A DNA stretch of 64,000 nucleotides. Source: Candidatus Altimarinus sp. Its GTDB lineage: Bacteria; Patescibacteriota; Gracilibacteria; BD1-5; UBA6164. The stretch's first letter is position 1. Each line of letters begins with the position of its first letter. The position numbers and the translations under genes are program-made. Positions 20,186-60,168 of this stretch are shown here, piece by piece. The stretch covers positions 1,103-65,102 of the forward strand of contig DYHI01000003.1 of the NCBI GenBank assembly GCA_020724225.1, read 5' to 3'. Under the pieces are notes generated by a model that saw only the letters and a program-made list of their open reading frames with translations, was not told the origin of the DNA and did not search any database.

Positions 20186-21703
20186 CTAGCTTTTTGTTAA
20201 ACTTACAATAGTTTCTATATGACTTGTGTGAGGAAACATATCAACTGGGATAATTTTTTCTATTTTGTAATCACTATTTTGTAATATAAATGATAAATCA
20301 CGACTTAAAGTTGCAGGATTACAACTTACATAAATAATTTGTTTTGTTCAAAATTTAAGTATATTTGGAAGTGCATCAGGATGCATACCAGTTCTTGGTG
20401 GATCTATAATCAAAAGTTCTGCTTTTTCTCATTTTTTTATATAATCATCTAAAAAATCCTCGACTTTTGCATTTATAAACTCCATATTTTTTATACCATT
20501 TTTATTTGCATTCGCTTCACCATCTTTTGAAGCATCAGTTACTAGTTCAACACTTATTACTTTTTTACTATGAGGAGCAAAAACCATACCAATAGTTCAA
20601 GTTCAACCATATAAATCTAAAACAGTTCAAAGATTTCAGTCATTATTCACTATTCACTGTTCACTATTAACTAAATTTAATACCTCGTTATATAATTTTT
20701 CTGCACCATAACTATTTGTTTGAAAAAAGCTTTTTGGGCTTATATTAAAAGTCAATCAAAGTAATTTTTCTTCTATAAATTCATTTCCATAAATAAGTTC
20801 AAGTTCTCAAATACTAGTATCAGACCTATTATCATTTAAGCTTAAGTATATTGATTTTATTTCAGAGTATTTTAAAGCTAATTTATTTAAAAAAGCTTTT
20901 ATTTTTTCCATTATGTTATCCTTATGCTCGACACGGGGATCTATTAAATTATCATTACCTTTTTTATAGATTCCTGCCTCCGCAGGAATGACATCAAGGT
21001 ATTTATGATTAATAGAAAAAATAACCATAATTTGATTTGTAAAAAATGCTTGTCTGATAACTATATGTCTAAAAAATCATTTTTGATCAAATTGATCATA
21101 AACTGGTAATCATGAAGCTTTTGCAAAGTCTTTTATTTCTTTAAATATCTTATTAGCTACTTCTGAAATAAGTATAGTTCAATCAAAATCCTGTATTTTA
21201 CTAAATTCTCATTGTTTATGAAATCACAAATTGAAATGCTCATTTTTTCACTCTTTTGCACTTATGTATTTTCAGAAACTAAATTCTATCTTGTTTCTAT
21301 ATCAATCTATAATAGGTGAGGGAACTATAGGACTCACAACTAAATCATTTTGAAACTTTTTTAAGTGAAAAATAGATTCTTCTACTTGTCATGCTTTTAT
21401 CTTTAATTGTTCATCGTAAGGTATATTTGCCCGAGCAAGTCAAGCTTGCATACCAAAAGGATTATTTGGATGTTCTTTTTCTAATGGTGATTTTTTAACT
21501 AATTCTTGTGATTGTGCTTCTATGTAATCCTTTCTAGATTTCAGAATCCTTATATTTACTACACTTCCAGGAACAACTCAACCACTTATAAAAATTGCTT
21601 TTCAATCTATATCTTTATTATCTGATTTCAATCTAGCAAATCATTTTCATCAAAATACTAGTTTTTCAACTACTACATTTTTAATTATTTCGTTTTTTTT
21701 CAT
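20186..21703 (-). CDS. 23S rRNA (uracil-5-)-methyltransferase RlmD/RumA family, with in-frame repeat insertions
   Basis: TRAM-like N-terminus, FFQTN, LDLYGGTGTIG, IIDPPRTG, YVSCNP. 505 aa. The stop TAG lies in hairpin aaagctag-aaaat-ctagcttt (20174-20194). Confidence 0.85.
20644..20671. repeat. Four tandem heptamers (TATTCAC-like) inside the rlmD coding frame
   Basis: tattcac tattcac tgttcac tattaac. Encodes VNSEQGIVNN just upstream of the SAM-binding motif. Confidence 0.85.
20915..20992 (-). repeat. Palindromic modular element, in frame and in sense in rlmD
   Basis: Reverse complement reads gtcattcctgcggaggcaggaatctat...atagatccccgtgtcgagcataaggataac. Encodes VIPAEAGIYKKGNDNLIDPRVEHKDN. 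Confidence 0.9.
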
Positions 21704-22939: not shown

Positions 22940-24586
22940 TTAAACTAAATTCTTATAAATATTTTCTACATATGAATCTACATTTTTTCATTTTAATGCT
23001 CTTTCAAAATGAAATTCGTATTTTTTATAAACTAAGTCATTGTTTAAGAAATTACTTCAAAGACAAGTCCAAAATCTATAAGCACATTTTGAGTTTAATT
23101 TATGCCAAAAATTTGAATATAGTTCTTGTTTCCCATTATAAAAATCTTCTAAATCATTTGCATAATAATCTTCATCGTAAATAGGTGTTAGTGCATAGTT
23201 GTTAGTATTTAGATTATATCAAACTACATTGTCATCCTCGTGCTTGACACGGGGATCTATTAAATTGTTAGAGTCATTTTTATAGATTCCTGCATCCGCA
23301 GGAATTACAATTAGTTCTTCAAACTTTGTACTACCAAAACCATAGCTATAAAATTTCTCTATATATTTTCAATTATTTCAATAAATCACTTTTACAACAT
23401 AATCTCTCTTTTTTTCTAAAAGTATGTTTTTCATACTGTCTTCTAAGTTTGTTATTTGATATGGAAGAAATCTATTATTTAGTAAATCGAGTATTATTTC
23501 TTCTTGTCTTTTTTCATCTCTTTTTTCATCATTTAGTGGTCAATTTACATAATATCTTTTAAATTTTGCATCTAGATTTGTAGGAGATTTTACAAAGTTT
23601 AAATTGTTCAAATAATTTATTTTTCATAGTTTATTAAATTTTGCATTTTTTATTTCATAACTCACTCAAGCTTCAAAATGAGTAATAGGGAAGTGTTTAC
23701 CATATCTTTGCATCGTACTTTTTTCTATACTTACAACTTCATCTAGTCATAGTATATGTACCTTTGAAGCTTCACTATCTAACTTTGATGGATATCAAAT
23801 TCATTGTCATATAAAAGCCTTACAAAAATTTTTTGATTTTGAGTAATCAACATAGTCCACCATTCATTCTTCAAATTTAACATAGTTCCATTCTATTTCT
23901 TCTTTTCTTGTTTTTATATACTCAGATGCAAATTTTTTCCTTTTATTTACATCTTCTATATCAAGTAATTTTATATTTCACTCTAGCTCATTTCTAGTTG
24001 CCATATACAAAACTGTTTCGTATTTTTTTGAAGAAAACATATCAAATATATAATTATTTGAATTATCAATTTCGCTTGGCAAAGTATCTACTTCTGCATA
24101 AACTATTTCTTTGTCTGAGTATACAAAAAGTGTCATTACATCATCCTCATTCGTCAAATAATCATTTTCAAAAACTAATCACTTAATTTTTATTCATTTA
24201 ATAGCTATTTCTTCCTTATTTCTTAGGATTTTATAAGTAAATTTTGGTAAATATTTATCCAAAAGGGGAGTCAAGAACTTAATTGTCTCAGGAATCAGTA
24301 AAATTGGTAAATTATTTAAATTTTTATACATTTCGCTTAAAGTATAGGGATCAAAATGATCACAATGTGAATGACTTATGAAAATAGCATCAATTTCTCA
24401 AAGTTTATCATAATCAATAGTTAATGTCGGATTTCTAGCCATCAAATCTCAAAAGGCATAATTTGTAAGCCATGCATCAGACATTATTTTTACAGGTTTT
24501 CAGTCTGCATTTTCTATATTTATCAGAAATTCTGAGTGTCAAAGGTAGTCGATTTGCATATGTGAGGGGTATTAAAAATATCGTCA
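22940..24586 (-). CDS. Metallo-beta-lactamase-fold hydrolase with a C-terminal extension and an in-frame repeat insertion
   Basis: LPGHSEFLI and ISHSHCDHFD (HxHxDH). 548 aa. The only in-frame ATG (24586) lies inside a repeat copy. The ATG at 24558 is in a dead frame. Confidence 0.75.
23231..23308 (-). repeat. Palindromic modular element, in frame and in sense in the MBL-fold gene
   Basis: Reverse complement reads gtaattcctgcggatgcaggaatctat...atagatccccgtgtcaagcacgaggatgac. Encodes VIPADAGIYKNDSNNLIDPRVKHEDDN. Confidence 0.9.
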
Positions 24587-30795: not shown

Positions 30796-30832
30796 AATTT
30801 AAATATTTACTTTTTAATCTTTTTATCAATTT

Positions 30833-31522
30833 ATGAAAATATTTTTCCTAATATTAGTGCCAATATTTTTACTTACATCATGTTTTACAGATAAAAAAGA
30901 AGAAGTTAAAAATGAAACAATAAAAAAACATCTTGAAACTAAAGCTCTAGAAGAAAAAAATAAATTTGAAGAAACAAAAAAACGGGAAAAAGTTGAAGGA
31001 TTTACTTGATTTTTATGTTTTAGTGAAGAGTTAACTTGAACTTGATTTATAGAGAAAATTGAAACAAAAAATTGTAAAAATGAAACCTGAAAATGAGAAA
31101 TATATTTTAAACTAGAATGAGAGAATCTAGTTAAATACAACGAATTACAAGAAAAGGAATTTATAATAAAATATATTGAAAAAAAAGAAAAAGAATTTAT
31201 ATGAATTTCAATAAAAAAGGAAATAATTTGAAATTTTAAAAATGTTTTAGATAAACAATCATGCCTTCATAAACAAGAAAAAAAGAAAACAATATTAAAA
31301 GATGATGATAACATTGTGATTTATAGCATATCAGCATTTTGATATTACAAAAAAGAAGCAGATGATCATTTAAAAATAGATAATACAATACAAGTATGTG
31401 AATGATATTATCCAAGTTGAAAATTTATTGTATTTAATAAAAATAATCAGAAATGATTTCGGTCAATAAAAGAAGATAAACTAGTTAATATAGATACTTT
31501 AAAAGTAAAAACTAAAAAATAA
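30833..31522 (+). CDS. Lipoprotein, hypothetical (229 aa)
   Basis: MKIFFLILVPIFLLTSC lipobox followed by a Lys/Glu-rich region. Confidence 0.65.
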
Positions 31523-36764: not shown

Positions 36765-38993
<2,229 letters not shown>

Positions 38994-39323
38994 AATTATA
39001 ACAATTACTACCTAGGATTTTTGCTAAGGTAAAATAAAATATAAATAAATTTTAATCAATATAAATTCATTTTCAATTCTATTTTATTTTTTACAACTTT
39101 TTAACTATTTGAAATTTATTAACTTTTCTTGTTTACATTTTTTATACAAAAACCAATTTTTAAAACAAAAAATCATATATTTTTATCGAAAAAATAGTAG
39201 AAAAATCATGTATTTCCTGTAAAATAATAAAAGTTTATCGAAAATTATTTTCGCTATATTAAGCCAGAATTACAATACATATATTTTAAACAACATAATA
39301 TTATATTTCGTCAAGCTTATTTT

Positions 39324-39353
39324 TTGGCAATTAAAATTAATTCCAGGTATAAT
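39324..39353 (+). promoter_or_regulatory. Near-consensus sigma-70-type promoter
   Basis: TTGGCA (39324-39329), 18-nt spacer, TATAAT (39348-39353). It faces a region with no ORF. Confidence 0.55.
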
Positions 39354-39359
39354 ATATAT

Positions 39360-39862
39360 GTATTAAGTTAAGTTCTTTTACATTTTCTTACTCTCCTAGA
39401 TGGGAAATACAAAACCTAGTATCACTCCCTAGTAAACATAAGTTTACTCAACCAAACCAAAAAAACACAAAAATAAAAACAAAAACAAGGTGTTAGCGGT
39501 AAGATAAATTATGTCCGTCTTTCTCAAATTAATTTTTGACAGAAAGTTGGTTTTATAAGACGGATATTATTTATCTTCAAACATACCTTCAAAAAAATAA
39601 AAAATTAAAAAATTTTTTAAAACAAAAAACAAAAGAGCATGGTGAATAGCTCTTAAATAATTACCCAAGGATAGTAAGAAAGGTGTAGGATAAAGTTCTA
39701 ATGAATCTTTACCTATACCAAACCGTAATAAAGGTTATTACAAAAACTAAATCCTTTTTCCCCTGGACAACTAAACATATTTATATAGTCCAGGCATGTG
39801 AAACTGGATTATATAAAAAAGCTAAGTCCCTTCTACCAAGAATACTTAGCTAATTTTTTTGT
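39360..39862 (+). ncRNA. Candidate ~500-nt structured non-coding RNA of unknown class
   Basis: No ORF over 30 codons in any frame under code 25. Nested long hairpin aagataaattatgtccgtctt...aagacggatattatttatctt (39501-39577). Further hairpins 39766-39815. A-rich linkers. Terminal hairpin agctaagt...acttagct (39820-39851) followed by a T7 run. Confidence 0.45.
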
Positions 39863-39874
39863 TTAAATTTTTAA

Positions 39875-39909
39875 ACAAAAAAAATACCAATATCAGTATA
39901 TTGGTATTT
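39875..39909 (-). terminator. efp terminator
   Basis: The minus strand reads aataccaatata-ctg-atattggtatt followed by tttttttt. Confidence 0.8.
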
Positions 39910-39921
39910 AAATAATTTAGA

Positions 39922-40470
39922 TTATTTAACTTTCTCCATAAAATCTCCTGTAGAAGTATTTACAACTATTTCATCTCAAACTTCAATATTTCAAGGAACT
40001 CCTATTTTCAATCAAGTATCTGTAACTGCATCTTTCATATAATTTCATGATGAAGTTAAATCAACTTCTGCAATTTTTAATTTTACATAAGTAGGCAATA
40101 TAATTCAAACAAATTTTCATTCATATTGTTGTATATCAATTGTACTTCATTCTACTAAGTAAAATTTCATATCTCCTATATCATCATCATTTAGTTCTAT
40201 TTGTTCATAAGTTTCTTGATTCATAAATACAAACATTCAAGACGATTCATACAAAAATTCAAAAGTTGTTCTTTCTAAAATAACATCATTTAATTTATCC
40301 TCACCTGAAAAAACTCTATCAGTAGATCATCAATTTGATATATTTTTTAATCTCATTTTTATCGTTGTTGCTCATCTACCTGCTCTATGGAACTCCCATT
40401 TATTTACAAAGAATAAATCTCAATCTATATCAAGTACTGTACCTGGTTTTGCATCAAATGCTGTTTTCAT
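39922..40470 (-). CDS. efp: Elongation factor P
   Basis: MKTAFDAKPGTVLDIDGDLFFVNKWEFHRAGRGATTIKMRLKN... 182 aa. Confidence 0.9.
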
Positions 40471-40491: not shown

Positions 40492-41289
40492 TTATATATT
40501 TAGTCTAAAATTGGCCTCCTCATACCCTTTCTCAGTTATCTCATCAATCTTTCCAAAGTCATAATATTCATAACTACTTATATCTGGACTAAGTAAAATT
40601 ATATCTTTTCATCTTGCTTTTGCAAGTTCTATACTTAAATCTTCATTTGTTCACATCAAAATAGTAATAGTTTTTTTCAATATTTGATAATTGTATCAAA
40701 AAAATCATTTTTTAAATTCAAAATTTCAAATTTTTCTTTTTGTTACTATTTCTTTTCACTTATCCCTAATAGCAGAAACTGCAATTATATCTTTTCATTC
40801 AAGATCTAATATTGGTAAATTTGCTTTTAATCAACCATCTATAAAATTATTTCAAAGATATTCAAATGAAGTAAATATCATTGGCAAACTGATACTTGCT
40901 CTCACAGCATCAACTATTCTTCACTTTAGAAAAACAATTTTATCTCAAGTATTTATATCTGTTGCAATTATTTTTAATTTAATTTTTGCATCTTCGATTT
41001 TTATTTCTCAGAAAATTTTTTCGAGTACTTTATAAACTTTATTTCCTGAAACAACTCATTTTTTTAAATCTAAATCAATCATTTTTAGGAAATTTATACT
41101 TTTTGCAATTTCTTTTATCTCATCAGTTGTCTTTCATATAGCAAAACATGCTCAAATAATTGCTCACATACTTGTTCAAGCAATTTCACTTATTTTAATA
41201 TCATTTTCTTCTATATATTTCAAAACTCATATGTGACAAAGTCATCTTGCAGCTCATCAACCAAGAGCTAGGGAGTAGGATTTTTTCAT
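40492..41289 (-). CDS. Patatin-like phospholipase
   Basis: LGGGAARG oxyanion motif, GTSMGAI nucleophile, IDGG. 265 aa. Confidence 0.85.
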
Positions 41290-41296
41290 AGGTATT

Positions 41297-43972
41297 TTAT
41301 TTAATCATATTTTTTAAAATTTTATAATCAGTCTTCCCTGTTCCAAGAACTGGAATACTTTCCACAATTATATTTTCTGTAATTTTTACAAGATTACTAA
41401 CTCATCTTTTTCTCAGGTAATCATTTACTTCTTCAATTTCTATCTTTTCAATAGAAAACAAAACTATTTTTGCATTTCCATCTTTTTCAAGAGCTTCAAT
41501 TGCTATTCTCAATTCTTTATCACTACCATATTTTTCTAGCAATATATTTTCCACAAATGGAAGTGAAATCATCTCTCAAGCTATTTTTATAAATCTTTTA
41601 AGTCTACCAGTAATTGATAAAAATCAATCATTATCTACAAATCATAAATCTCAAGTTTTATAATACAATTTTCAATCAATTTCTTCAAAAGGACTTTCGA
41701 GTTTTTCATCTAGGTATCAGCTAAATATAGAACTTCAAGATACATAAATCATTCATTGAGATCAAATTGGAAGTTCTTTATAATAGATTCCTGCCTCCGC
41801 AGGAATGACAGAAGGTATTGTATTTATATCTATTATTTTATATTCCAAATTTGGGAGAATTTTTCAGACAGTTCATGGTTTACTTCAAACTATAGGATTT
41901 ATAGAAACAACAGGACTACACTCAGTTATTCCATATCATTCCAAAATTACTCAATTTGGTGATAATTCTTTAAATCTTTCAAATACTTCTTTTGAACATT
42001 TTTCAGCTCAAACTACTGCATATTTTACATTTTTTAAATAATCTCAACTTGCAAGAGCCATTATCATTTTCAAGAAAGTTGGAGTAGAAGTGATGGCTGA
42101 CACTTTTGTATGTTTAATTATTTCCAAAATAGTTTTTGCATCATTTGGATCTGGAGTATTTGCAACTCTTAAGGATGTAATAAGAGGCATAATAGAATTT
42201 ATAGTGAATCAAAAACTATGAAATGGTGGAAGAAATCCTAGAAGTATATCATCAGATTTTAATTCAAAAATATTTAATGCTCATTTAATATTTTCTATCA
42301 AATTTGTATGTGTAAGTGGAACTGCTTTTGGTAAACTTTCAGATCATGAAGTAAAAAGTATAACTGCATTTTCTTGAAGTTTTGGAATTGGTAGATAAAA
42401 ACTTTTTAAAAGTGCATAAATTTTTTCTGAAACTTTTCATCATTTAAGTAAATCTTCCAAAAATAGAAATCTTCAATTATTTTTATGTTCTTCTAAAAAA
42501 TCATTTTTAACTCTATCATAAAAACTTGAAACTGTTATTATTTTATCAACTTTTGAAAATTTTACACAGTGATCAAATGCTTCTTTCCCTAGAGTCCAAT
42601 TAAACATCACTGGGGTTTTTCCTGCTAAGTAAGTTGCAATTATAAGTAAACTAGCTCATGATACAGCAGGCATCATAATTCCTATATATTCTCAATCTAT
42701 TTTTTTAATTCTTTTCGATATAAAATAAGCTTTTAAAATGAAATCTTTTTTTGTTTGAAGTCAAAGGATATTGTCCCAAATAAAAGTTTCATTTTTATTT
42801 TCCCTAAAGTTTTGTTTCTACAAATCAAGAATTGTTTTATATTTTCTATTATTAATTTTTTCAAACAAATTAGTTACAATTGCATTTTGTTTTCCCCACT
42901 CACACTCTTTCAACTTCTCATAACTTTTACTTTTTCAAACTGCCATTACATACAAATCTCAAACTGTTTTTAAATCAGTTATTGGAGGATTTGAAGCTCA
43001 AGGAAAATTTGCTTGAACAAATGATTTTATTTCAGCAGCATCTAGGCTATCGAAAAATAAATCTAAAATAAGTTTTGAATTATCATCTATTTTTGTTTTA
43101 TCAATTCATTTAATAATTGATATTTTTTCATTAATCTTCACTTTTACATCTTCTGGGATCTGTGATAAATCATAATTATTAGTAATATTTAATTCTTTTT
43201 CCGAACCTGTAATAATACTCGGTTCTTTTTTATCTTTTACATCGTTATAGAAAAAATAATGTGGGATGTATCTTAATTCTTCTAGTGGTTCAACATTATA
43301 AAAATCTTCTAAAAATTTATTGAACTCATTAAGAGATTTTGTTTTATTTTCATTTATTTCTTTTGTGATATCAAAAATTTCTATATTTACATCTCTTTTT
43401 GGAACAAAAAATAGTAAATTAGCAAAAGTAAATTTTATGCTTTGAATATATGCTTTAATAAAAGTTGTTTCACCATTATCCCAAGCTTTTGACCAAATAC
43501 TTCCCCAAAGTCATCTTTGTCTCAATCAAATAACTTTTGTATTTTCAGGCATATTATTTGCAATAAAATATGCTGATTGTTTTCACTTAATACTTTCAAA
43601 ATTTTGTCTATAGATTTGACCAGATGGATAAATGAGTATATTTTTTCATTCTTTTAATCACTCTACAATTGAAGTAAATACTTTTTTTACATCTTCCGCT
43701 GATGCTCAAGCAGTCATTTCTCAAATAGGTACAGCTCAAACCAAATTCATAGCCTGTTTCAAAACTGGAAGTTTATAATATTTCTCAGAAGCAACAGGTG
43801 AAGCAATTATATATTTTCACAAAAAAGCTATAAGAATACGAGGATCAACCAAAGCGACATGATTTGGTAAAACCAAAATTGGTCAATTGTGTTTCAGATT
43901 TTCTACTCATTTTAGTGTTACTTTGTAACGGATAGAAAGGATTAGACGAACGATGAAAAGAATTAGTTTCAT
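41297..43972 (-). CDS. Aas-like trifunctional protein: lysophospholipid acyltransferase, acyl-carrier domain, acyl-AMP ligase. Interrupted by one in-frame TAG.
   Basis: LPNHVALVDP acyltransferase motif. LFFDSLDAAEI carrier motif. AMP-binding motifs LFTSGSESLPKAVPLTH, EGYGITE, YYKTGDLG, GTGKTDY. One frame of 891 codons from start to stop, with TAG at 42818-42820. Confidence 0.75.
41783..41809 (-). repeat. Single hairpin module in frame in the AMP-ligase domain
   Basis: Reverse complement gtcattcctgcggaggcaggaatctat encodes VIPAEAGIY, between ...KIIDINTIPS and YKELPIGSQGMIYV. Confidence 0.9.
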
Positions 43973-43988
43973 AAGTATTGGTTAAGAG

Positions 43989-45197
43989 TTATTTTATTTT
44001 TATTTGTTTTCTATAAAGTAAACCTCAAATTATCATCATAATAATTCAAAGTAATATCATCAAAATTCAATATCAAAGTTTTTCCAAAATAAAACTACTA
44101 GTAAACATCATAGAAAATAAGATCATACTAAAAACAAGTCAAAAAGTACTTGCTCAATACTCCTTTTTATCTTCATCTCAGATAGTTTTTAATAAAAATG
44201 AGTCTACCAGATTTGAACTAACTCAGAAAAATAATCAAAGTATTACTGCCAAAATTTTCATAGCAATAAATGTAGTAGCTAAAAATGAAAATGAAATTAT
44301 AACAAATGAAAACAATACATTAAAAATAATAAAATATTTCCATCTATTTTTATTCATTTTAACTGAAAGTAGATTTCAGACTATTGCTCAAATAGCAGAA
44401 TAAAAAAGAATAAAAGTAGCCACTGATGTCTCAATGTTAAAAGTCTTAGTACTATATTCAACTGAAGATTGTGCTACAATTGTAGAAACTGTCCATAGAA
44501 AAGAAGATGTAATTATTATAAAACTATAATTTTTCAATATATATTTTAAGTCCGGAATATATGCTTTTATTGCTTGTTTTAAACTTTCTTTTCTTTCAAA
44601 AAGATATTTTCACCAACCATGAGAAACAAGTGAAGTAAAACTAACTTTATCATAATCTAAATTAAATGAAGCAATTGAAGCAAATGCTAAAAGTCACATA
44701 ATTACAAGATATCCTTCTTTTCATAATTTTTCAAATAATAAACTTCAAACAACAGATCAAATGATGATAAATACAACAAATGTAATTCAAACTAGTGCAT
44801 TTACAAGTGTTTCTGGCAATCATGTTTTTTTGATTTCTATTGCTATAATTACACTTTTCACAACATTCCAAAGTCAGTATAAAAATCACAAAAGTGTTAC
44901 AACTAAAGCAAATGAAAAACTATTTTCAAATCAAAAGAAGTATCATATACTTACAAAAAGTAATGATAAAACAGAAATTACAAACAGATAATATTTTTTC
45001 AAAAAAGTTGAAGCAAAAGCTCATCAAACCAAAAATGCAAATACTGATCAAAGACTTAGGTATCAAGCAACTTTTTGTAAATCCATATCTAAAGTAACTC
45101 AATTTACTCACCACATATAAAATTTAATAGTTGCAAAAAATGTTGCCCATACAGCAACCAAAATTATAAAAATAATAAATGTTTTAAATTTGTTCAT
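43989..45197 (-). CDS. MFS transporter, LplT-like (lysophospholipid transporter)
   Basis: ~12 TM, 402 aa, immediately upstream of the aas-like gene, as in the lplT-aas arrangement of proteobacteria. The assignment comes from context and topology. Confidence 0.6.
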
Positions 45198-45227
45198 AAA
45201 AAATAATTAATAAATACTTATCTTATT

Positions 45228-45818
45228 TTACTCGAAATCAACACAAACACTGTAAAAAACATCATCTTTTCTTCCAAAAAACACTTGCCTATTTTGTCAT
45301 TTATAGTTTAGTGATAGAAATAATGTAAAATCTAATCAAGTAATAGTTTTTTTACTATCTTTTACTGATTTCAATATAATATTTTTCATATCATCTAAAC
45401 TTCCAAAAATATATTTTATTACACTTTCTTTTGCAGTCCAAAGTATGAAAAAGTTTTCAAAGTTCTTTCATCAAAGTACAATATATTCTTCATCATCAAA
45501 TTGATTTAAAACTGATATATCTCTTTCTTTGTATACTTCTATATCAATTCATATTTTTTTGTCACTAACTCAAACAAAAACTAAATCATCTTTATGTGAT
45601 ATAGTCCAAAAAAGCCAATTATCAAAAATAGGCTTTCAAGTTTTATCAATCTGTGGAAAATAGTTTTTAATTCAAAATTCTCTCTCAATTTCTTTTGAAA
45701 TCAGATATCTAGCAACTAGAGATTCTTTTGAATTAAAATTATTTATGTAATTTTTTGGGAAATAGTTTAATGTATCTTGATATAATGAATCAATATTATT
45801 TTGTATTTGTAAGTTCAT
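45228..45818 (-). CDS. 4'-phosphopantetheinyl transferase (Sfp-type)
   Basis: WTISHKDDLVFVGVS, IGIDIE, WTAKESVIKY. 196 aa. The ATG is 1 nt after the radical SAM stop. Confidence 0.8.
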
Positions 45819-45819
45819 T

Positions 45820-47202
45820 TTAATTATTATAAAACATATTATAAGTTGAAAATGGATAAACCTTCCCTGGCTCAATTATAAAATTACATTCTCTTTTTAT
45901 ATTTGTAGAATCAAAATTATACATATCACTAAATTCCATAATAACTATTCTAAAAACATTTTTATAACTCATATATTCTGGGGCTATAAAATCTGGCCAA
46001 CAACAAAAAAGTTTTCTTTTAATTCTATCCTTTAAGATATTTTCTCACATAGCAGTATCTAAACTTACTGTTTCTATAACTGTTTTTATAAAATCTCTAT
46101 CTTGTTCAAATGCAACTGTTCATTTTTGATGAGTTATAACTTCTCTTGGGATTTTTCAAGTAACAGGAAGTATATTTATATTTCAATCTTTAATAGTTTT
46201 TATAGCATATCAAACACTTATTTTATGTGGATCACAAGGAAGTGGAATCATATCATCACTGGTAAATCAATTTTTATTTGTATCTATTACTTTTTGTCTT
46301 ATTTCAGATAATGTTATCTTATAATCATTCTCTGAATCGTTTCTTCATACATCACTTATAGGTTGAAAAACTATTCATCTGACACAGTCTTCTCGAGTTG
46401 CAAAATTAATTAATTCTCAAATTTCTTCATCATTTACTCATCTTGAAACTACACAAACAAGTGTTGTAGAAATATCATATTTATTTAACATTGCTAAAGC
46501 TTTTTTTCTTGTTTGTAGCATATCTTGATTTCTTAGAATTTTTAGAGTTTCTTCTTTTAGAGAATCAAATTGTAAATACACTTCAAATCAAGGTCATAAA
46601 TCTTTTAATGATGCAACAAAATTTTCATCATTTGCGATTTTAATTCCGTTTGTATTTAGCATTAGGTGTCTAACTGGTCATGATTTTAAATATTTCAAAA
46701 TACCCAAAATTTCTGGATGAAGAGTTGGTTCTCATCATGTTACTTGTATGAGATCAGGTTTTGATTCAACTTTTAAAAGAGTTAAATGCATAATTTTTAT
46801 ATCAGCTAAACTTTTATAATTTCATTTTCAAGGTTCTGCTTTATGATAACAAATATTACATTTCATATTACATTCATCAGTTACATTAAAAAGAGCTAAG
46901 CAAGGATGATTTTGATGTTGAGGACAAACTCAACAATCCCAAGGGCATCAATGTTTTACTTCTGTCAAAGCAGTTTCTGGAAGATCAGGAAGTTTTAAGT
47001 AGTTTTCACACTTTTTATAATATTCAAGATCCGTTGATATTTTTACAAAAGTTTCTCCACAATCAGGACAAAATTTTCTCAAAAAAACTTCATTATCTTT
47101 TGAAACTATATGAGTATCAATGAGTTTTTTTGTTTTACAAAGATGACAAAAACTTTGTGTAGTAGATAGAAATATATCATAGTTTCTGTTGTATTGTGCC
47201 AT
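45820..47202 (-). CDS. Radical SAM protein with an N-terminal Cys4 zinc ribbon (MJ0619/Tes-like architecture)
   Basis: CHLC...CPDCG ribbon, GCPWDCGVCPQHQNHPC, CNMKCNICY (CX3CX2C), VTGGEPT, C-terminal ...ECNFIIEPGKVYPFSTYN. 460 aa. Confidence 0.75.
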
Positions 47203-47206
47203 AATT

Positions 47207-47668
47207 TTATTTATAAAATAATCACATTTTTCAATTTAATTTATTATAAATTAAATATAATGAAATTAATCAAGTTATAATCAAAAATATTCAAAAAAAT
47301 TTATCTTTATAATAATTATCTTCAAATAATATTATTCATCAAAAGACTAATAATCAAACTCAAACAAAAAATAATGACAACCATCAAATAAATTTAAGAA
47401 TTTTTCACAATAAATCTTTTATAGTTATTCAATTATTTATTATGTATAATATTAATCAAAATCAATATTTTAATATAAGATAAATTAAATAAAATCAAAA
47501 AATTACTATTGGATAAAACAGTAAATTTGATAATCTATAATATTCATATGAAGTCATATATATCAAAAAAGTTCATCAACATAAAACTCAAAAAATTCAT
47601 AATAAAATAAATAAAACTAATAATATAATTAATAATATTTGTTTTGTGGTAAGTTTATTATTTTCCAT
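47207..47668 (-). CDS. Small polytopic membrane protein (153 aa)
   Basis: MENNKLTTKQILLIILLVLFILLGIFGVLCGG... Its ATG overlaps the lgt 3' end and it stops 4 nt before the radical SAM ATG. Confidence 0.55.
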
Positions 47669-48400
47669 AATTATATTTATTTAATTTATAAATTACATAA
47701 ATTATCATCCCAATAGAAACTATTTGAATAGTATTTAATCCTATCCATAAGTGACTATAAGGCATAATAAATCAAGCTAAAAATCTGTATAAAAATACAC
47801 AAGACAAAAAATAAAAAATCAATTTTTTATCCAGTATTCTTTTTTATATTTCAATCATATAATTAATAATACTCAAATAAATAATAACACAAGTATTTCA
47901 TAAATTTGAGTTGGATGTCTAAATATTCCATCTCAATAATCATATCACCAAAATAGACTTGTTTCAATTCAGTGAGTATTATCTCTTAGTCATATATTAA
48001 AAGCTCAAATTCTTCATACTATAATTCAAACTATTAAGCTAGGAACAAAAACTACTCAAGTATTAAATTTTAAATTATATATTTTTTTAACTATTTCAGA
48101 AGCTATTACTCAACCTGCAATTGCTCATGCAATTGTTTTTGATAAAACAATTCAATCTCAAAAGTTTTCTTGAAAATATCCTGAAACATAATTATCAAAA
48201 GTTGAAACTAATATTGCAAAAAATATAGCTAAACCAAGTATTCATAAATAATAAAAAAGTTTTTGTTCAAAATTTGAAAAAATATTTGAATTTATATTGT
48301 GTTTAAAATAATATTTATAGCTTAAATATCAAGCTATTCATCCAGATAAATAACCTAAAAAATCACCTAATATTTTTATTTTATAATAATCAAAATCCAT
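47658..48400 (-). pseudogene. lgt: Prolipoprotein diacylglyceryl transferase (Lgt-like) with an apparent 1-nt frameshift
   Basis: VGRIGAFN and RHPTQIYE lie in the start frame, which hits TAG at 47777-47779. The Lgt-like C-terminus YRFLAGFIMPY...IQIVSIGMI continues in another frame to TAA 47658-47660. The break is at a T5/A5 run (47791-47795). Total length is 743 nt, not a multiple of 3. Confidence 0.7.
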
Positions 48401-48416
48401 AAAACATAATTTATTA

Positions 48417-51400
48417 TTAAACAACCTCAACACTACCCCCATCCTTCACAAATTTTTCTACAATTTCAACTATTTTATCATAGTCTCTTTTATTTAATTC
48501 TGATTTATAATTTGCTTTTATATAATCAAATGTTGTTTTTAATTCTCACTTCTCAAAAGTTGTTTTTCAAGATTGCTCTATAACTATTTTTCACATTTTT
48601 ACTAAATTTTTTGCTCTAATTTTTATATTTTTTCAATCATTGAATTTAAAAATTATTGCAGTTTTTTCTCATAAATCTATCTTTTCCAAATCGGTATTTA
48701 TAGTAGATGATTGAGATTTTTCAGGATTAACTATTGTAGAAGTTTCTTCACTCGCAAAATCATCGCTCAATTTTAAATTATTTTTTTTATATAAACTTGA
48801 TATATAAATCATTATTGATCATACAAACATAAAAGCTACAATTCTTACAATTGCATTATCCGTTATATTCCAGATATCATACAATCACATTTTAACCAAT
48901 GTAATAATAAGTAAATATAATCAAGCTGATCTGATATTTTTATTTAAATTAAATATTCAAATATGAACCGCAATCAAAGATAAAATTCACCAATAAATTG
49001 TTAATGAAAAATAATCATTTGTAAAATTAAATAAATAGATTGAAGAAATAATGAAAAAATAAATTCCTGAAATTATATTCATATATTTATACTTAATTTC
49101 AAAAAATCTTGATTGAAGATAAACAATAGATAATGATAAAATAGTAAAAATATAATTTAAATTATAATTATCAAAGAAATTAGTTGAAATTATGTGCACC
49201 AACAACAATCATACTAATAAAGCTTGAGAAAAATATGATAGAATTTTATCTTTAAATAAATCGTAAATAACTCAGATAAAAGTTGTAAAAAATAAAGTGA
49301 AAATCAAGAAATTTCAATAATCTTTAAAATCAAATATTGTAACGAGATTTACAAAAACTATAAAAATTCAAAAAATATGTAAAACTTTTGTAAATATTGC
49401 ATCTTTTGAAGGCAATTTTATATTTAAAAACAATAATATTGAAATAATTCAAATAGAAACTAAATCAGAATAATTTAAAGATATTCAATTCAGACTTGCA
49501 TCCATGTATTTTACAAGTCAGATTATAAAAAGAATAATTCAAGCCAAATAAATTTTTTCTTTATTTAATTTATTTGCAAAATAAAATAATATAGTTGATT
49601 CAAATAACCAAATTATAGAAATTACAAGTGGTAATTTAGAAAAAACTAAAGCAACTGAAATAGAGAATAAAGAAACAGCTATAGCTAAAAATGCATACAG
49701 TAAATTTAGGTTTGAATCATTTTTTATTTCTTCTTTATCCAACCTAGAAAAAATCAAAAATCATCAAATGAAATATAAAATAGCAAGTCATAAAAATGCA
49801 ATACCTAAACTTACTCCTGGAAAATATTCATTTCAAAATCTAAATAAATTTCATCATACAAAAAGCACTCAAAGTATAATTCAAAAGATCAAATTTGTTG
49901 AATCATTTTTTATAAGATTTTTATTTACAAAAGGAAGTAAATAATTTGAAATTCAAAAAAGTGTAATTCAAATAATTGATAAAAATGAAAATTCTCATTT
50001 TACTTCAATTATTGATAACAATAAAACAATAGTTGAAAATGTTCATAATGTATATAAATAGCTCAAATCTTTTTTCGTAGACAAAAAATATGTAGTAAAA
50101 AAGTATATAAATGATGTAATAAAAATAGTTAAAAAACTTGCTTTATCTATTCAAAAATCTATATTTAAATGTAGATTTGCAAGAAATAAAAATACTCCCA
50201 AAATAACAAAAAATATATATTTAAAAATCGATGAAACTATACTTCAAATTCAAAATGCAAATACTAGTAAATATGCAAGTAAAAAAAGTGGAATCAAAAT
50301 TATTCAAGTTCAAGAAGCTCATAAAAACAAGAAGAAAAGTACAAATAATAATGGTAAAAATATTAAATTTAATAGTCAAACTCAAATAGATGTAATTATA
50401 AAGAATGAATTAATTATTAATAATCAAAGAGTAGCAATTATAAACATTATCATTACTCATAAACCTGTAAGAGCATAACCTGAAAACATTATAAATGCTA
50501 AAAATATATATGTGATAATAAATGATAACATTATATTTTTTACCTGCTTATTTTTATAAAGTAGGAAAATTGATGCAAAATTAATTACATTAAATCAAAT
50601 CATTTTTGATACAAAATATGAAGAATCGTTTCAAAAAGGTGCTATCAAAAAAAGTATATTTCATCAAATAAGAGTTGTATAAAATAATTGAATCGAAGTT
50701 AAATTATCTCATACTTTGTAAAAATAATTACTTAAAAATAATCATCAAATACTCAAAATCAAACTATATCAAACAAGCAAAAATGGAGTATTATAATTTT
50801 CTCAAATTATAAATGGAATTATATATGAAAATATAATAGAAAATAAAAGTAGATTTTTTGAACTGTAAACAAATGATGTAACTACAGAAAAAATAGTATT
50901 TAATATAAGTAAAATAAATGTAAGATAACTATCTAAAAATCAATTTCAAATAATAAATTTTCAACTTAAAATAACTATATAATTTATCAAGATTCAAGTT
51001 CAAATAAGTATAGTTCATTCTGTATCATATCATTTATTATGAACAAATACTCATACAAAATAAACTGTAAATCAAATTACAAATCATATAAGTATTTTTG
51101 CTACTGGTCAGACATAAGTATAAACTAAACTCATCAAAAATATAACTCAAAGTGCAAGTAAAATTCATCCTATTTTTGCCATAAGATTTTCAGCAAAAAA
51201 ATCAGATAAAAATTTTGCAATTTTTGAAGGTTCTTCAAGTTTTTCTTCCCTTATTTCATTTATTGAATCATTTTTATTTTCTATTTTATCAATATTTCCT
51301 TGAAGTAATATATTATTGTTTTTTTCTTTTTCCAATCTAGTATAATAATCTTCATCATAAAAATCATCATCTATTTTTTTTACTCATACTATTTCTGATT

Positions 51401-51695
51401 TTGTTTCATTTAAAACTGATTCTAAAATTTCTTTTTTTTCATTTTCTTTAATTATATTTTCACTTATTTTTTTTGGAATTTTTACTCATGATAATTTGAG
51501 TTTTTCAATTATTTCATTTGATATATTTTCTTTGAATTTAGATAAACTATTTTCTATAAAAGTTTTATTAAATAAAACTTTTATTATAACAAATACTATT
51601 AATCAGAATAAAAATAAATCATCATCAACTAAAAAAATAATTAAAAAAGCCAAAATAGCTAAAATCCAAGATATACGATTAAAAATAGAATACAT
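48417..51695 (-). CDS. Very large polytopic membrane protein (DUF2339-like, ~1092 aa)
   Basis: N-terminal TM helix, charged coiled region, then ...FFAENLMAKIGGILLALGVIFLMSL and dozens of hydrophobic helices. The start, the stop and track ORFs 48987-49208 and 49539-49757 share one frame. The interior was not fully checked. Confidence 0.65.
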
Positions 51696-51717: not shown

Positions 51718-53397
51718 TTATTTAGAAACTTTGTTAATTTTTCATAGCATCATAAAAATTCACCCTAAAAATAATAAAACTATAAATACTATCAATCATA
51801 TAAAAAATCATTTATTTGATTCTATAAATCTATCATCTTTTTCATCACAAATATCTCAGATAGAGTCATTATCAATATCTTTTTGATCTGGATTATAATC
51901 ATACGGACAATTATCTTTTCAATTAATTATATTATCTCTATCTGTATCTTCACAAACATTTCCTATACCATTATTATCACTGTCTTTTTGATCATTATTT
52001 GCATCATTAATACAATTATCAAGATATCAAATAATTCAATCTTTATCACTATCTTCACACATATCTCAAACTCAATTTTTATCTAAATCTAACTGATCAA
52101 AATTCTTTATATTTATGCAATTATCACAGACATCTCAAACTAAATCTCTATCATTATCTTTTTGATCTGGATTATATACATTTACACAATTATCTTGACT
52201 ATCAATTACAGAGTCTTTATCTCTATCATTATCTATTTTATATCTTTCAGTTTCTTCACATACATCTCAAATACCATTATCATTTTTATCTAATTGGTTT
52301 GGATTATATAATTTACAATTATCACAAGCATTTCAAATACCATCCCTATCATCATCTAATTGATCTGGATTATATATATTTATACAATTATCTTGACTAT
52401 CAAAAATAGCATCTCCATCTTTATCAAACTCACAAACATCTCAGATTCAATTGTTATTTATATCTTTTTGATCTCTATTTGATATATATGGACAATTATC
52501 ATTTTTTCAAACTAATCAATCTTTATCATCATCATCACAAAGATCTCAGATTCAATTTGTATTTGTATCTAACTGATTTGGATTATAGTCATTTTTACAG
52601 TTATCATCACTATCAGTAACTCAATCTAAATCCACATCATTTCATATATCAACTTGATAATCTATATTTTTTATTAAATTAACAGAAAAAATATCTAAAC
52701 TAGAATTAAATACATAAGATTTAACCGATTTAAAATTTTTTGATTGGTAATCTCTCAAATCATCATAATCTTTTCAATTTGAACAAAAAAAGTTTGAAAA
52801 TAATTTTATTTTTCAGTTTGTGTCAGATTTAACTAAATAAATATAATTATTTTTTTTGAAGTCTAATTCTCTGATTTTAATATTTTCAATAATCCTATCT
52901 CTATTATAAGAAAAAAAACTTAACTTTAAATATCTAAAAGAAAATGTATCTAAATTATATAAAGAAACTTTTTTATAACTTATATTATCATCTGAAATAA
53001 ATATATTATAAGTATAATTTATAGAATCAATAAGTATTTTAGGTGAAATTCAAGGTCAAACACTTTTTCAAAAATCAAGTATCAAATCATTACTATTTTC
53101 TCAAAGTGTTTTTGTAAAATATGTATCATACTTTCAATCTTTTAAATACAATAACTCGTTTTGTTTAATATCAACTAAATAATCCAATTTATCCACTGAA
53201 CTTTTATAAAGTTTAAGATAAATATCATTATTTTCAGTTTTGGCATAATCTATATTTCTATCAATATTCAATAAAAAAATCTTATTTTGAGGAACTTCCA
53301 AAGTTCATAAATACTCAAAACAAGACTCATTAAGTGCAAAAGTTGAAAAATAAAAAAATGTAAAAAATATACTTAAAAATAAACGAAATGATTTCAT
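51718..53397 (-). CDS. Secreted thrombospondin type-3 (Ca-binding) repeat protein with a C-terminal TM anchor
   Basis: Signal-like MKSFRLFLSIFFTFFYFSTFA. About 10 repeats of D.D.DG..D..DNC....N..Q.D. C-terminal FFIGLIVFIVLLFLGGIFMML. 559 aa. Confidence 0.8.
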
Positions 53398-58214: not shown

Positions 58215-60140
58215 TTATTGTTTTATCTTTAAATTAAATTTATTTGCATCAAAATTTGTTATATCTGTAAGTATTACATTTGTATTATCATAGATAATTC
58301 AAGTTCAAGTAATTACTTCAACAAAATTTCAATATACATTTCATAATTTTATATTAACAGTATCAATATCATTTCAGTTTTTCAAAATTTTTATATTTCA
58401 TGCATTATTTGATCAAATTTCAACTGCATTTATAGGTAATAATGGATACTTCGTTGATATATCAATAAATAAATCTACAATTCATCAAATCAAATTAATA
58501 TTTTCATCAAATATAACATTTGCTTTATAATTTAGATTTGTATCTGCTACAGAAGAAATAGAATAAATTTTTCAAATAAAAGTTTTTTCTCAAATACTCA
58601 TTTTTACTTCAGTTCAAACTTCTACATATTGCAATTCTTTATCTTTAAAAGATATTTCAACTTCTGAGTTGTTTGTTCAAATCATAGTTAAAAGTAGAGT
58701 TCAATTATTTACATCAACTCATAAATCTATATTTATATCAGAAATCACTCATGATACAGGGGCTTTTATAGACAATTTACTGTACTCCTTTCTAGCCGAT
58801 TCTAGAGCTATTTCAGATTCCCTAATAATATTTTCTAGTCACATAAGTGTTAAATTTCTTGACTCAATAGAATTTGATAAATTATTTTCTATCTGTTTCA
58901 ACTGAAGTTCTAAACTATTTAATGTATCATTTGTAGAAATTTTAATTTTATCAAGATTATTCTTTGTTTGTGTAGATGATAAATCATAGTTTTTAAGCAA
59001 TATATCTTTTTCTTTATTCAAGATTTCCAATTGTTTTGATAAAGATGATTCATTATTTTTGTATGTATTCAAAAATGTATTTACAGAATTTTTAAAAGAA
59101 ACAAAAATAGAATTATTTGAAGAATAAAGAGATTGATAAGTGTTAATTGTAGTTGCATATGCATCAATTTGTGATTGAGATAATTGTCATATACTTATTA
59201 CAGAATTTTGAATAGTTTTTTCTAACTCATCTAAGTAAATAGATATTTTTTCATATCAATTATTAACTATTTCTATTGAATCTTTTATAGACTGATCATC
59301 AGAAAATACTAAATCAATTTTTTCTATATTATTTGTTTTATATGAAACTAGATCATTCAATAAAGTTTTTGAATTTGATTTTTGCATAAGATCTTTTGCT
59401 CATAAAAAATCCTTAAAAATCTTAACACTATCCTCATATTTTCAAGTTATATCAAAAAGTTTATCACCAAAAACAACTAAATCTTCTATAAATATTTTTT
59501 GATTATTAACTTCCTTAACTAAACTTTTTTTAAAAGTATTTATATTTTCTAGATTAGACTTCTTCATATTATCTAAATCTAGCTCAAATTTAGAAATAGA
59601 ATTATTTAGTTTATCTAGTTCCAAAGATGACTTAGTATCTATTTGACTATAATCTAGGTTAGATAAACTATCCTCAACCTGAATAATATCAATTGAAGAA
59701 TTAAGTCTTGCTGTCTCCAAACTTGATTTAATTTTTTCTAATGCTATTTCATTATCAAAAATCTGTTTATCCAAAGAGAGTTTTGTTGAATCATAATTGA
59801 TTTTTGCTTTTTCAAGTCAATTAATAGCTCTATCAAGGTTTATAGAATAATTTGCAATATTGTCAGATAAAACAATTAATGTTTGTCATTCTATAACCTT
59901 TTGTCATTCTTTTACATATATTTTTGAAACTCTTCAATTTGCTTGAGATGTTAATTTAATATCTTGACTTCACTCAAGTTTTCCTACTTTTTTTATTGTT
60001 GTTTTATTTTCAAAAGTTTGAAAAGGTAAAGCACTTATAAAAAAATCAGTTTTTCAATTTTTTTCTACAATTTCTTCAGTTTTCCCACAAGAAGATAGTA
60101 TTAGCAATAAAATTAAAGTTATTGAAATTATTTTTTTCAT
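58215..60140 (-). CDS. Efflux adaptor (membrane-fusion) lipoprotein with an unusually long coiled-coil hairpin
   Basis: LILSSCG lipobox, lipoyl-like ...GRVSKIYVKEGQKVIEGQTLIVL and ...IKAPVSGVISDINIDLG flanking ~330 aa of coiled coil. 641 aa. Track ORFs 58839-59072 and 59442-59774 are in frame. Confidence 0.8.
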
Positions 60141-60168
60141 AGATTAGAGGTTATAGATTAGAATTAAC
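60141..60168. repeat. Tandem heptamers (14-nt unit x2) directly 5' of the adaptor ATG
   Basis: agattag aggttat agattag aattaac. Confidence 0.8.

Follow-up and report, generated by a model that had tools for sequence, protein, structure and literature searches.

The window considered here, a stretch of 64,000 nucleotides from contig DYHI01000003.1 of Candidatus Altimarinus sp., carries on its minus strand a series of genes for proteins that probably act on lipids, in which we lean, if only slightly, towards seeing two adjacent modules that are conserved independently of one another. The first, module A, would be a system composed of a paralog of Lgt, a membrane protein with a conspicuous cysteine and a radical SAM enzyme resembling Tes, and the second, module B, would be a re-acylation system of the Aas/LplT type. 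The functions proposed for both are predictions from homology and conserved gene neighbourhoods. Read from position 51695 down to 39922, the gene order is DUF2339 protein, Lgt-like protein, small polytopic membrane protein, radical SAM enzyme, 4'-phosphopantetheinyl transferase (PPTase), major facilitator superfamily (MFS) transporter, acyltransferase with a C-terminal extension, AMP-dependent ligase, patatin and EF-P (Table 1). A preliminary description of the window had grouped eight genes of this region in an operon for the scavenging and re-acylation of lysophospholipids.

The G+C content of the window is about 24%, and calling of open reading frames (ORFs) with translation table 11 splits the region into short ORFs only. 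Reading UGA as sense expands the coding capacity from 11.6 kb to 84 kb. Of the 19 UGA codons in the radical SAM gene, 15 align with invariant glycines in homologues that use the standard code and none with tryptophan; the genome therefore uses genetic code 25, in which UGA specifies glycine. All ORFs were re-called on this basis, and profile searches with the corrected proteins confirmed the gene families that the preliminary description had named. The intergenic gaps, which it had put at 1–25 nt, measure 16, 108, 4, 1, 30, 16, 0, 7 and 21 nt along the cluster. A promoter scan returned 139 sites against 137 expected, and the two terminator-like sites are unconvincing, so that the scan is uninformative on an operon either way. 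The genes may be co-transcribed, to judge solely by their shared strand and spacing.

The division into two modules emerges from synteny. A metagenome scan seeded on the acyltransferase-carrier family yielded 44 loci; neither an Lgt-like nor a radical SAM gene lies closer than 10 kb to any of them (0/44). The order PPTase, MFS, Aas, patatin is found in many of these loci, and the module B cassette recurs in Gracilibacteria (L086, L088, L089, L091, L098/99, L102 and L108). The closest syntenic relative, on an 834-kb contig (L089), encodes a protein with thrombospondin type-3 (TSP3) repeats, a DUF2339 protein, a protein X, PPTase, MFS, Aas, patatin and, later, LigA. X is an unrelated protein of 345 amino acids in this relative, whereas its place in the window is taken by the trio of Lgt-like, small transmembrane (TM) and radical SAM genes. 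As the same flanks occur in L089 without the trio, module A is a separable cassette. Most Lgt-like/radical SAM loci carry no PPTase, MFS, Aas or patatin gene, and the trio is found in Campylobacterota and Planctomycetes as well as in Gracilibacteria.

The eight genes consequently do not hold together as the unit that had been envisaged. Lysophospholipid salvage stands as a reading of the five genes of module B and is not supported for the Lgt-like, small membrane and radical SAM genes; likewise, the expectation of conserved synteny in relatives is borne out for module B, which recurs in Gracilibacteria without module A. It could still be argued that all eight genes serve a single pathway for scavenging and remodelling host lysophospholipids, in which the Lgt-like and radical SAM proteins are obligatory steps. 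The shared strand and tight spacing would fit such a pathway, as would a JGI contig on which both modules occur together, the PPTase and MFS genes that flank module A in L005, and a fused LplT-Aas gene located directly 5' of the Lgt-like/radical SAM pair in 7 of 27 Campylobacterota-type loci. We consider it quite improbable in view of the 44 Aas loci with no module A nearby, the matching synteny of L089 and the solitary occurrence of module A in most loci of Gracilibacteria, Campylobacterota and Planctomycetes; moreover, free-living Campylobacterota need no host-lipid salvage. The two modules adjoin more often than chance would suggest, and the link between them appears to be facultative.

At the centre of module B is a predicted Aas-like enzyme with three domains, here encoded by two consecutive ORFs. 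The acyltransferase contains the HX4D motif (N37-H38...D43, with N37, H38 and D43 invariant in the family alignment) and also matches TIGR00530. It is followed by a carrier domain at about 42923–43165, in which the codon of the phosphopantetheine attachment residue, Ser309, lies at 43046–43048. The family profile of this domain matches 118 solved structures of acyl carrier proteins (ACPs), with a best E value of 8e-11 and its serine aligned on the attachment serine, and the serine of the DSL motif is invariant in 26 of 26 family members. PF00550 recognizes five of ten carrier family members, and the window sequence taken alone is sub-threshold. Judged by the family profile, the embedded acyl carrier domain postulated in the preliminary description is real. 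The ligase contains the ANL motifs TSGSESLPK, YGITE, TGDLG and GTGK, and its best NCBIfam matches are PRK08633, the Chlamydia-type AasC model PRK06334 and the Aas model PRK08043 (5e-77). The curated equivalog cut-offs for Aas are not reached (384 against 1221 bits, 349 against 847, and 260 against 886), a shortfall due in part to the scoring of the gene in two pieces against models that span more domains.

A single ORF of about 880 residues is the common state of the tri-domain enzyme among relatives. Further members of this form come from Candidatus Vampirococcus lugosii and from Bacteroidota such as Breznakibacter xylanolyticus, a cultured species; their annotation goes no further than 'AMP-binding protein'. 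These proteins are full-length homologues with 40–52% identity, the same domain order and intact ORFs. The notion that the carrier domain is an adaptation specific to the candidate phyla radiation (CPR), compensating for loss of ACP, was rejected as stated, since Bacteroidota share the architecture. Bacteroidota are generally held to possess an ACP of their own, and the occurrence of the enzyme in this phylum therefore weakens the argument from ACP loss.

The PPTase gene appears to supply the carrier with a modifying enzyme of its own, as had been suggested, being a member of the ACPS superfamily by PF01648 and adjacent to it in the cassette. Its best NCBIfam matches are the Sfp-type models AusB, HetI, AcpT and EntD, all below their equivalog cut-offs, and the motifs (I)GIDIE and WTAKES are present in the sequence. 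PPTase homologues adjoin MFS/Aas genes in L086, L088, L089, L091, L102 and L108.

The MFS transporter is encoded directly 5' of the Aas-like gene in the window, in L086–L089, L091, L098–L100, L102 and L108, and in Vampirococcus, where the MFS protein directly upstream of the tri-domain enzyme is homologous to that of the window (2e-63). Position thus agrees with the LplT-like label that the protein had been given, while the specific sequence kinship to LplT is weak. A phmmer comparison of the window MFS with the LplT domains of fused Aas proteins gave no match; an hhalign comparison with the MFS part of fused LplT-Aas proteins reached a probability of 94% (E = 9e-8), a level common between MFS families. 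The window protein matches no NCBIfam model, and the MFS profile has no match in the PDB. The order of the two genes is that of lplT-aas, with the MFS gene preceding the tri-domain enzyme in Vampirococcus too, and Aas-type models give the best scores for the enzyme.

The patatin displays the oxyanion motif GGGAARG, with which the protein directly begins, together with GTSMG and DGG. No signal peptide is present in the sequence, and the enzyme is therefore predicted to act on the inner-leaflet lipids of its own cell and not on host membranes from outside. The idea of a lipase in the salvage cassette retains its basis in synteny, as the gene is located 3' of the ligase in L086, L088, L089, L091, L095 and L099; the attack on host lipids from without does not. 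The tri-domain loci of Vampirococcus and Bacteroidota (two inspected) have no adjacent PPTase or patatin gene.

The domain set of module B and the conservation of the cluster are established by these comparisons, and the re-acylation mechanism that they suggest would run as follows. The MFS protein would flip lysophospholipid to the inner leaflet. The ligase would adenylate a free fatty acid and load it onto the enzyme's own carrier, previously brought to the holo form by the PPTase, and the PlsC-type domain would pass the acyl group on to the lysolipid. The cytoplasmic patatin could, in addition, deacylate phospholipids to lysolipid and fatty acid for remodelling. For comparison, E. coli LplT flips lysophospholipids, and Aas makes acyl-ACP from holo-ACP and fatty acid and then acylates the lysolipid (PMC11416262).

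Alternatively, the tri-domain enzyme might use scavenged fatty acids to acylate glycerol-3-phosphate or lysophosphatidic acid, in the manner of PlsB or PlsC, or a non-phospholipid acceptor, rather than imported lysolipids. The acyltransferase belongs to the broad PlsC family (PF01553; TIGR00530), in which acceptor specificity is not readable from sequence, and the members of the family in Bacteroidota have no adjacent homologous MFS gene. We nonetheless think this role unlikely, given that the best models for both catalytic domains are of the Aas type (PRK08633 and PRK08043) and that an MFS gene directly precedes that of the enzyme in Gracilibacteria and Vampirococcus, which is the arrangement of lplT-aas.

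In comparison with E. coli LplT-Aas, module B likewise places an MFS transporter beside an N-terminal PlsC-type acyltransferase and a C-terminal ANL ligase. It differs in that the carrier is built in between the catalytic domains and accompanied by an adjacent PPTase, where the E. coli system relies on free holo-ACP, and also in the attached patatin and in the split of the gene by TAG. Fused LplT-Aas proteins of the PRK08633 type (about 1150 amino acids; for example at the Campylobacterota loci L019 and L020) show the same order of MFS, acyltransferase and ligase. They have no carrier and only a linker of about 35 residues, whereas in the window the MFS protein is separate and about 180 residues are inserted, including the carrier of about 90. 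Module B can be described as a new variant of the known Aas/LplT system, and module A as known enzyme families in an undescribed arrangement.

The radical SAM enzyme of module A is, on the evidence of profile searches and structure modelling, specifically Tes-like, with the full-length Tes fold, a likeness that the earlier reading had missed. The NCBIfam models TrsS and Tes score 263 bits (cut-off 490) and 236 bits (cut-off 450), respectively, both below threshold; TrsS, the top match, is catalogued as a selenoprotein without function. The closest solved structure is that of GDGT-MAS (PDB code: 7TOL; 2.5e-56), with about 29% identity. Structure prediction was performed on P0002, a protein of 89% identity that stands in for the window protein, and the resulting model, of low confidence across 380–438, matches 7TOL over its full length with TM-scores of 0.78/0.73 over 487 columns. 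The next-best structures, a second tier that includes SkfB, SuiB and anSME, reach TM-scores of at most 0.39 and match the core only.

The cysteines of the CX3CX2C motif (C111, C115 and C118) are invariant in the family, as are those of an N-terminal rubredoxin-like Cys4 site (C19, C22, C45 and C48) and the residues of an N-terminal cluster of three cysteines and one histidine (C86, C90, C93 and H96). Toward the C-terminus, where GDGT-MAS has an auxiliary cluster domain with a labile Met ligand, the alignment with 7TOL is weak. M422 is kept in 18 of 20 sequences, the cysteine of 'PFCTYN' is a serine (PFSTYN), and other invariant cysteines at 323, 400/401 and 439 could ligate a cluster. Thus the four-domain fold, radical SAM motif, N-terminal metal site and three-Cys + His cluster are shared with GDGT-MAS, from which the enzyme differs in its low sequence identity, in the Cys4 in place of Cys3His, in the C-terminal cysteines, in its bacterial host and in its pairing with an Lgt-like gene, seen at neither of two archaeal loci. 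GDGT-MAS is the sole relative with a characterized activity and couples two lipid tails at their ends: hydrogen is removed from a terminal carbon of the lipid, and a C–C bond arises through a cluster-sulfur intermediate (PMC9433317; PMC13459092). A functional analogy may be drawn with Mss (PMC13159169), a radical SAM enzyme that acts on the acyl-chain ends of bacterial phospholipids. Mss belongs to another radical SAM family, only remotely related to Tes, and an Lgt-like or lipobox partner is not reported for it.

The family is tight, with 64–72% identity across Gracilibacteria and sulfur-oxidizing Campylobacterota, among them Sulfuricurvum, Sulfurovum, Sulfurospirillum, Nitratifractor and Arcobacteraceae; homologues of remoter tiers occur in Myxococcales, Planctomycetes, Marinimicrobia and archaea. 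Between Gracilibacteria and Campylobacterota, the Lgt-like partner is only 32–37% identical where the radical SAM enzyme retains 64–72%. Either the radical SAM enzyme is very strongly constrained or the two genes have differing histories.

The Lgt-like protein appears to be a divergent paralog of Lgt. Its family profile aligns with E. coli Lgt (PDB code: 5AZB; PMC4728403) over the full length (E = 3e-15), in keeping with a shared seven-TM fold, and Pfam LGT recognizes each of 16 family members. The equivalents of R143 and R239 are invariant and those of Y235 and E202 are kept. In contrast to E. coli Lgt, the His103 equivalent of the HGGL motif is Leu or Ala and the N146 equivalent is Ala or Cys, so that the signature is kept only as GR(I/L)G; an invariant Lys, Glu and Lys are new, a single presumptive substrate gene is adjacent, and there is a radical SAM partner. 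The window protein has no match to the NCBIfam lgt equivalog models, against which a Campylobacterota member scores 47.5 (cut-off 334) and 32.7 (cut-off 118.9), and a single-sequence search of the PDB with the Lgt-like protein returned no match. The products of two genes elsewhere in the window begin as canonical lipoproteins, with signal peptide and lipobox (30818–31522, 'LLTSC|FTD', and 58215–60143, 'LILSSC|GKTEE'). A housekeeping lipoprotein pathway is therefore presumably encoded elsewhere in the genome.

The two enzymes are closely linked. Among the 45 close loci with enough flanking sequence, 44 have an Lgt-like gene no more than 2.2 kb away from the radical SAM gene. In the distant bacterial tiers, the linkage is found at 4 of 9 and 12 of 17 loci, with linked pairs in Myxococcales, Planctomycetes and Marinimicrobia, and in archaea at 0 of 2. 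In Myxococcales, Planctomycetes and Marinimicrobia, the genes around the pair include no others for lipid synthesis.

The third component is a small protein in which a cysteine is placed at the end of a hydrophobic helix. In the window this is the small polytopic membrane protein, a putative substrate of the Lgt paralog, whose Cys30 codon lies at 47579–47581; among 554 window ORFs it is the only one with a TM helix followed by CGG. The protein has no family match in Pfam and no phmmer match to its positional counterparts, which share the motif without alignable sequence. At all 11 Gracilibacteria loci, one to three small membrane proteins have a hydrophobic helix that ends in x-x-C-G-G; the 19 ORFs of this kind all lie between the Lgt-like and radical SAM genes, against 0 of 1848 other ORFs.

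In Campylobacterota, two arrangements are seen. Where the enzyme genes are spaced apart, a family of proteins of 200–245 amino acids is encoded (about 24 loci), which have the signal peptide and lipobox (S-L/M-G-C) of a typical lipoprotein and no match in Pfam or NCBIfam; lipobox ORFs make up 28 of 446 at the locus as compared with 9 of 2105 elsewhere. Where the enzyme genes abut, as they do at every Aas-linked locus, a conserved protein of three helices and about 100 amino acids is encoded just upstream, and its C-terminal helix is followed by a small residue and cysteine (10 of 11 loci, versus 51 of 710 background ORFs). In Planctomycetes, 6 of 8 loci encode a small protein containing 'FF(L/F)TC(L/S)G' a short distance 5' of the radical SAM gene, against 0 of 306 background ORFs. 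Lgt-like protein, TM + Cys protein and radical SAM enzyme thus form a three-part association across three phyla.

Three side observations concern these loci. The small protein of the window resembles an internal duplication of two two-helix halves, the first containing 'GVLCGGTFLI' and the second 'GLLVFGGIILF', with Phe in place of Cys. Fragments of a second Lgt-like and radical SAM copy are present about 3 kb downstream of the intact pair in L026 (14493–16395) and L030 (about 5630–5773), and look like a decayed tandem duplicate. The trio with a lipoprotein is also carried by OZ223240.1 (L033 / L003), a sequence labelled 'chromosome: 1' of an Arcobacteraceae metagenome-assembled genome that, at 953,870 bp and 29% G+C, is small for the family.

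Lgt passes diacylglycerol from phosphatidylglycerol to a cysteine at the outer end of the signal-peptide helix (PMC4728403). The proteins associated with the paralog also place their cysteine at the end of a helix, and we therefore propose that the paralog lipidates this one substrate. In a first step, it would move a diacylglyceryl group from phospholipid to the cysteine of the cognate protein, and in a second the Tes-like enzyme would modify the lipid tails of the anchor, either by cross-linking the two chains or by joining them to a lipid of the opposite leaflet. Module A would then represent an unrecognized form of protein lipidation in at least three phyla, in which C–C or C–S bonds between tails produce a cross-linked or membrane-spanning anchor; we advance this tentatively, as a possible reading that is on the unlikely side. 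The Aas genes near module A could recycle lysolipid by-products of the lipidation, with which their position is compatible. The maturation of lipoproteins in E. coli constitutively generates lysophosphatidylethanolamine, which is recycled by LplT/Aas (PMC11416262).

A different product, modified free membrane lipids of a macrocyclic or membrane-spanning diacyl type, would be expected if the Lgt-like protein served to present phospholipid and the cysteine proteins were accessory or unrelated. The full-length Tes fold would suit this role, which has been hypothesized for bacterial Tes homologues as presumed makers of branched tetraethers (PMC8941075). GDGT-MAS itself acts on free phospholipids, and the enzyme purified from E. 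coli held E. coli phospholipids (PMC9433317); furthermore, the Lgt paralog is without the histidine that has a proposed role in peptide binding. Nevertheless, loci from three phyla encode a TM + Cys protein, which takes three architectures and is very strongly enriched, and the bacteria confirmed to make membrane-spanning lipids have no Tes homologues (PMC13159169). Such free lipids seem to us rather unlikely as the product.

Very improbable, in our estimation, is a system akin to those for ribosomally synthesized and post-translationally modified peptides (RiPPs), in which the radical SAM enzyme would act on the cysteine of the small protein, for example to form a thioether, and the Lgt-like protein would have some other role. 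Radical SAM enzymes often modify cysteine-containing peptides encoded alongside them, and the core-only fold matches mentioned above include SkfB, SuiB and anSME. Yet neither a SPASM domain nor a RiPP recognition element (RRE) is found, the four-domain architecture is that of Tes (TM-score 0.78 against at most 0.39), and the partners in Campylobacterota are lipoproteins of 200–245 amino acids with canonical lipoboxes.

Two lesions affect the genes in this genome. The frame-0 ORF of the Lgt-like gene ends at a stop at 47777 ('VYFYTDF*'), and the -1 frame resumes with sequence that matches the C-termini of all homologues and ends 11 nt inside the next gene. The frameshift corresponds to one missing T in the T-run at 47784–47800, where T5 is found and the intact reading needs T6. 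The apparent gap of 108 nt arises from this 1-nt frameshift, the corrected gene overlapping the next start by 11 nt. The Arg that corresponds to R239, an essential residue in E. coli Lgt, and the last two TM helices are encoded past the frameshift.

The second lesion is a single TAG at 42818–42820, which divides the acyltransferase-carrier ORF from the ligase ORF within one reading frame. This codon aligns with a conserved Trp (TGG) in relatives, both those with split genes (L086 and L087) and those with a single ORF (P0202 and L089). Ligase homology begins immediately past the TAG, with the PRK08633 match starting at residue 3, and the first ATG is found 47 codons downstream at 42676. TAG is an ordinary stop in this genome, where it terminates 10 of 47 genes. 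Two apparent relatives at 96% identity, P0001 and P0121, turned out to be the window's own proteins translated with UGA as Trp, and so lend no independent support to either the TAG or the frameshift.

The lesions may be assembly errors, recent damage or tolerated splits, and the TAG is also a candidate readthrough site. Were the Lgt-like and Aas genes pseudogenes or misassembled, the cluster would be partly decayed and the locus as sequenced would encode no working system. The frameshift costs the Lgt-like protein the Arg and helices just described, and the TAG, a normal stop here, replaces a Trp codon with the next ATG 47 codons into the conserved N-terminus of the ligase. On the other hand, the frameshift falls in a homopolymer, where assembly errors and slippage are common, the TAG is situated in a linker between domains that is a natural split point in L086, L087 and L088, and the remaining genes of both modules are intact and well conserved. 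We regard decay as possible without being likely.

Several points weigh against the interpretation as two working lipid modules. The roles of all components are predicted, and bacterial Tes homologues are without demonstrated function (PMC8941075, PMC13159169). For module B, the MFS protein is weakly LplT-like by sequence and owes its label to position and a weak profile match, the acyl acceptor of the tri-domain enzyme cannot be read from its sequence, and this enzyme, occurring also in Bacteroidota, is not CPR-specific. As regards module A, the paralog has lost the HGGL histidine, which E. coli Lgt cannot do without and to which binding of the peptide substrate has been ascribed as a proposal, and lipidation of the cysteine is therefore not assured; the paralogs of Gracilibacteria have also lost the equivalents of E243 and R246. 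The cysteine-motif proteins are non-homologous between lineages, and in Marinimicrobia the TM + Cys motif is suggestive by eye and absent under the strict filter. The nominal Fisher p values for the association (Gracilibacteria, 2e-23; Campylobacterota lipobox, 8e-15; abutting Campylobacterota, 9e-11; Planctomycetes, 9e-4) are inflated, as the loci are related and the motif definitions were set post hoc. Finally, the Lgt-like and Aas genes may be impaired in this window.

Our search of the literature found nothing on an Lgt paralog with a radical SAM enzyme or on Tes homologues with lipobox proteins, nor on an Aas/LplT-type cassette in CPR bacteria, Gracilibacteria or Absconditabacteria. PMC8080830 describes CPR bacteria, after Probst 2020, as lacking lipid synthesis and having lysolipid-rich membranes, and for organisms described there as without phospholipid synthesis module B represents the most plausible route for rebuilding diacyl lipids. 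It offers a concrete, clonable candidate for membrane building in the CPR, conserved across Gracilibacteria and present in Vampirococcus, a system with a cultured host. The chemistry of module A, if as proposed, would be new. Bacterial Tes homologues number in the hundreds, all of them recognized in sequence surveys, and their function bears on the branched tetraether proxies used for palaeoclimate. The pairing with an Lgt paralog and a lipobox-type cysteine protein points to the modification of lipid-anchored proteins, away from bulk membrane lipid, and would, if true, give the bacterial Tes homologues their first assigned function.

Table 1. Position of the two modules, their genes and the flanking genes in the window, with the principal profile matches.
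Feature	Coordinates	Strand	Size and evidence
Module A	45820-48400	-	Lgt paralog; membrane protein with TM helix and Cys; radical SAM enzyme of the Tes type
Module B	40492-45818	-	PPTase of the Sfp type; MFS transporter; Aas-like enzyme (acyltransferase, carrier, ligase); patatin, predicted cytoplasmic
DUF2339 polytopic membrane protein (context)	48417..51695	-	1092 aa; Pfam DUF2339 2e-26
Lgt paralog	47658..48400	-	247 aa after correction; Pfam LGT 1e-7, 1e-12 corrected (48 bits)
Small polytopic membrane protein	47207..47668	-	153 aa; N-terminal K-rich region, TM helix, lipobox-like 'GIFGVLC30GGTF'
Tes-like (GDGT-MAS-like) radical SAM enzyme	45820..47202	-	460 aa; PF04055 3e-22; Pfam Zn_ribbon_HMPTM 5e-9
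Sfp-type 4'-phosphopantetheinyl transferase	45228..45818	-	196 aa; Pfam ACPS PF01648 4e-8
MFS transporter in LplT position	43989..45197	-	402 aa; Pfam MFS_1
Aas-like part 1, PlsC-type acyltransferase + carrier	42818..43972	-	PF01553 3e-12; PRK08633 positions 414-617
Aas-like part 2, acyl-AMP/acyl-ACP ligase	41297..42817	-	PF00501 5e-51; PRK08633 1e-114; AasC model 4e-104
Patatin-like phospholipase, predicted cytoplasmic	40492..41289	-	265 aa; Pfam Patatin PF01734 1e-30; RssA-like 1e-27
efp, elongation factor P (neighbour outside the system)	39922..40470	-	NCBIfam EF-P 6e-48, above cut-off

The flanking genes vary among relatives. The DUF2339 gene, located 5' of both modules in the window, precedes module A in L009 and module B in L089. 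The patatin gene of L089 is not trailed by efp. The C-terminal soluble domain of the DUF2339 protein (approximately the last 70 amino acids, '...FDYIKANYKSELNKRDYDKIVEIVEKFVKDGGSVEVV') resembles the N-terminal domain of some relatives' CGG-motif proteins, with phmmer values of 1e-10 to 4e-12 (L005 6920–7474, L023 9264–9995 and L046 8786–9676). Upstream of DUF2339, at 51718–53397, is the gene for a surface protein with calcium-binding TSP3 repeats and a C-terminal TM anchor, and this TSP3-repeat/DUF2339 arrangement is syntenic in relatives (L087 542–2239 and L089 1731–3494).

No tRNA and no Rfam family was detected in the whole 64-kb window. The interval of about 900 nt between efp and ligA (39012–39921) contains no ORF of at least 60 amino acids in either code, no tRNA and no Rfam match at gathering thresholds. 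A GC-rich palindromic repeat, GTCATTCCTGCGRAGGCAGGAATCTATAAAAA, often accompanied by a second part (...GATCCCCGTGTCAAGCACGAGGATGACAA), is present in eight copies in the window. Two of them are intergenic (at about 24586 and 61860), and six are inserted in frame within unrelated protein-coding genes (at about 15187–15290, 15838–15940, 20900–20990, 23220–23305, 38480–38585 and 41780–41806). A short copy sits in the ligase gene of the cluster, the orthologues of which are without it. We take these in-frame insertions to be reminiscent of the Rickettsia palindromic elements.

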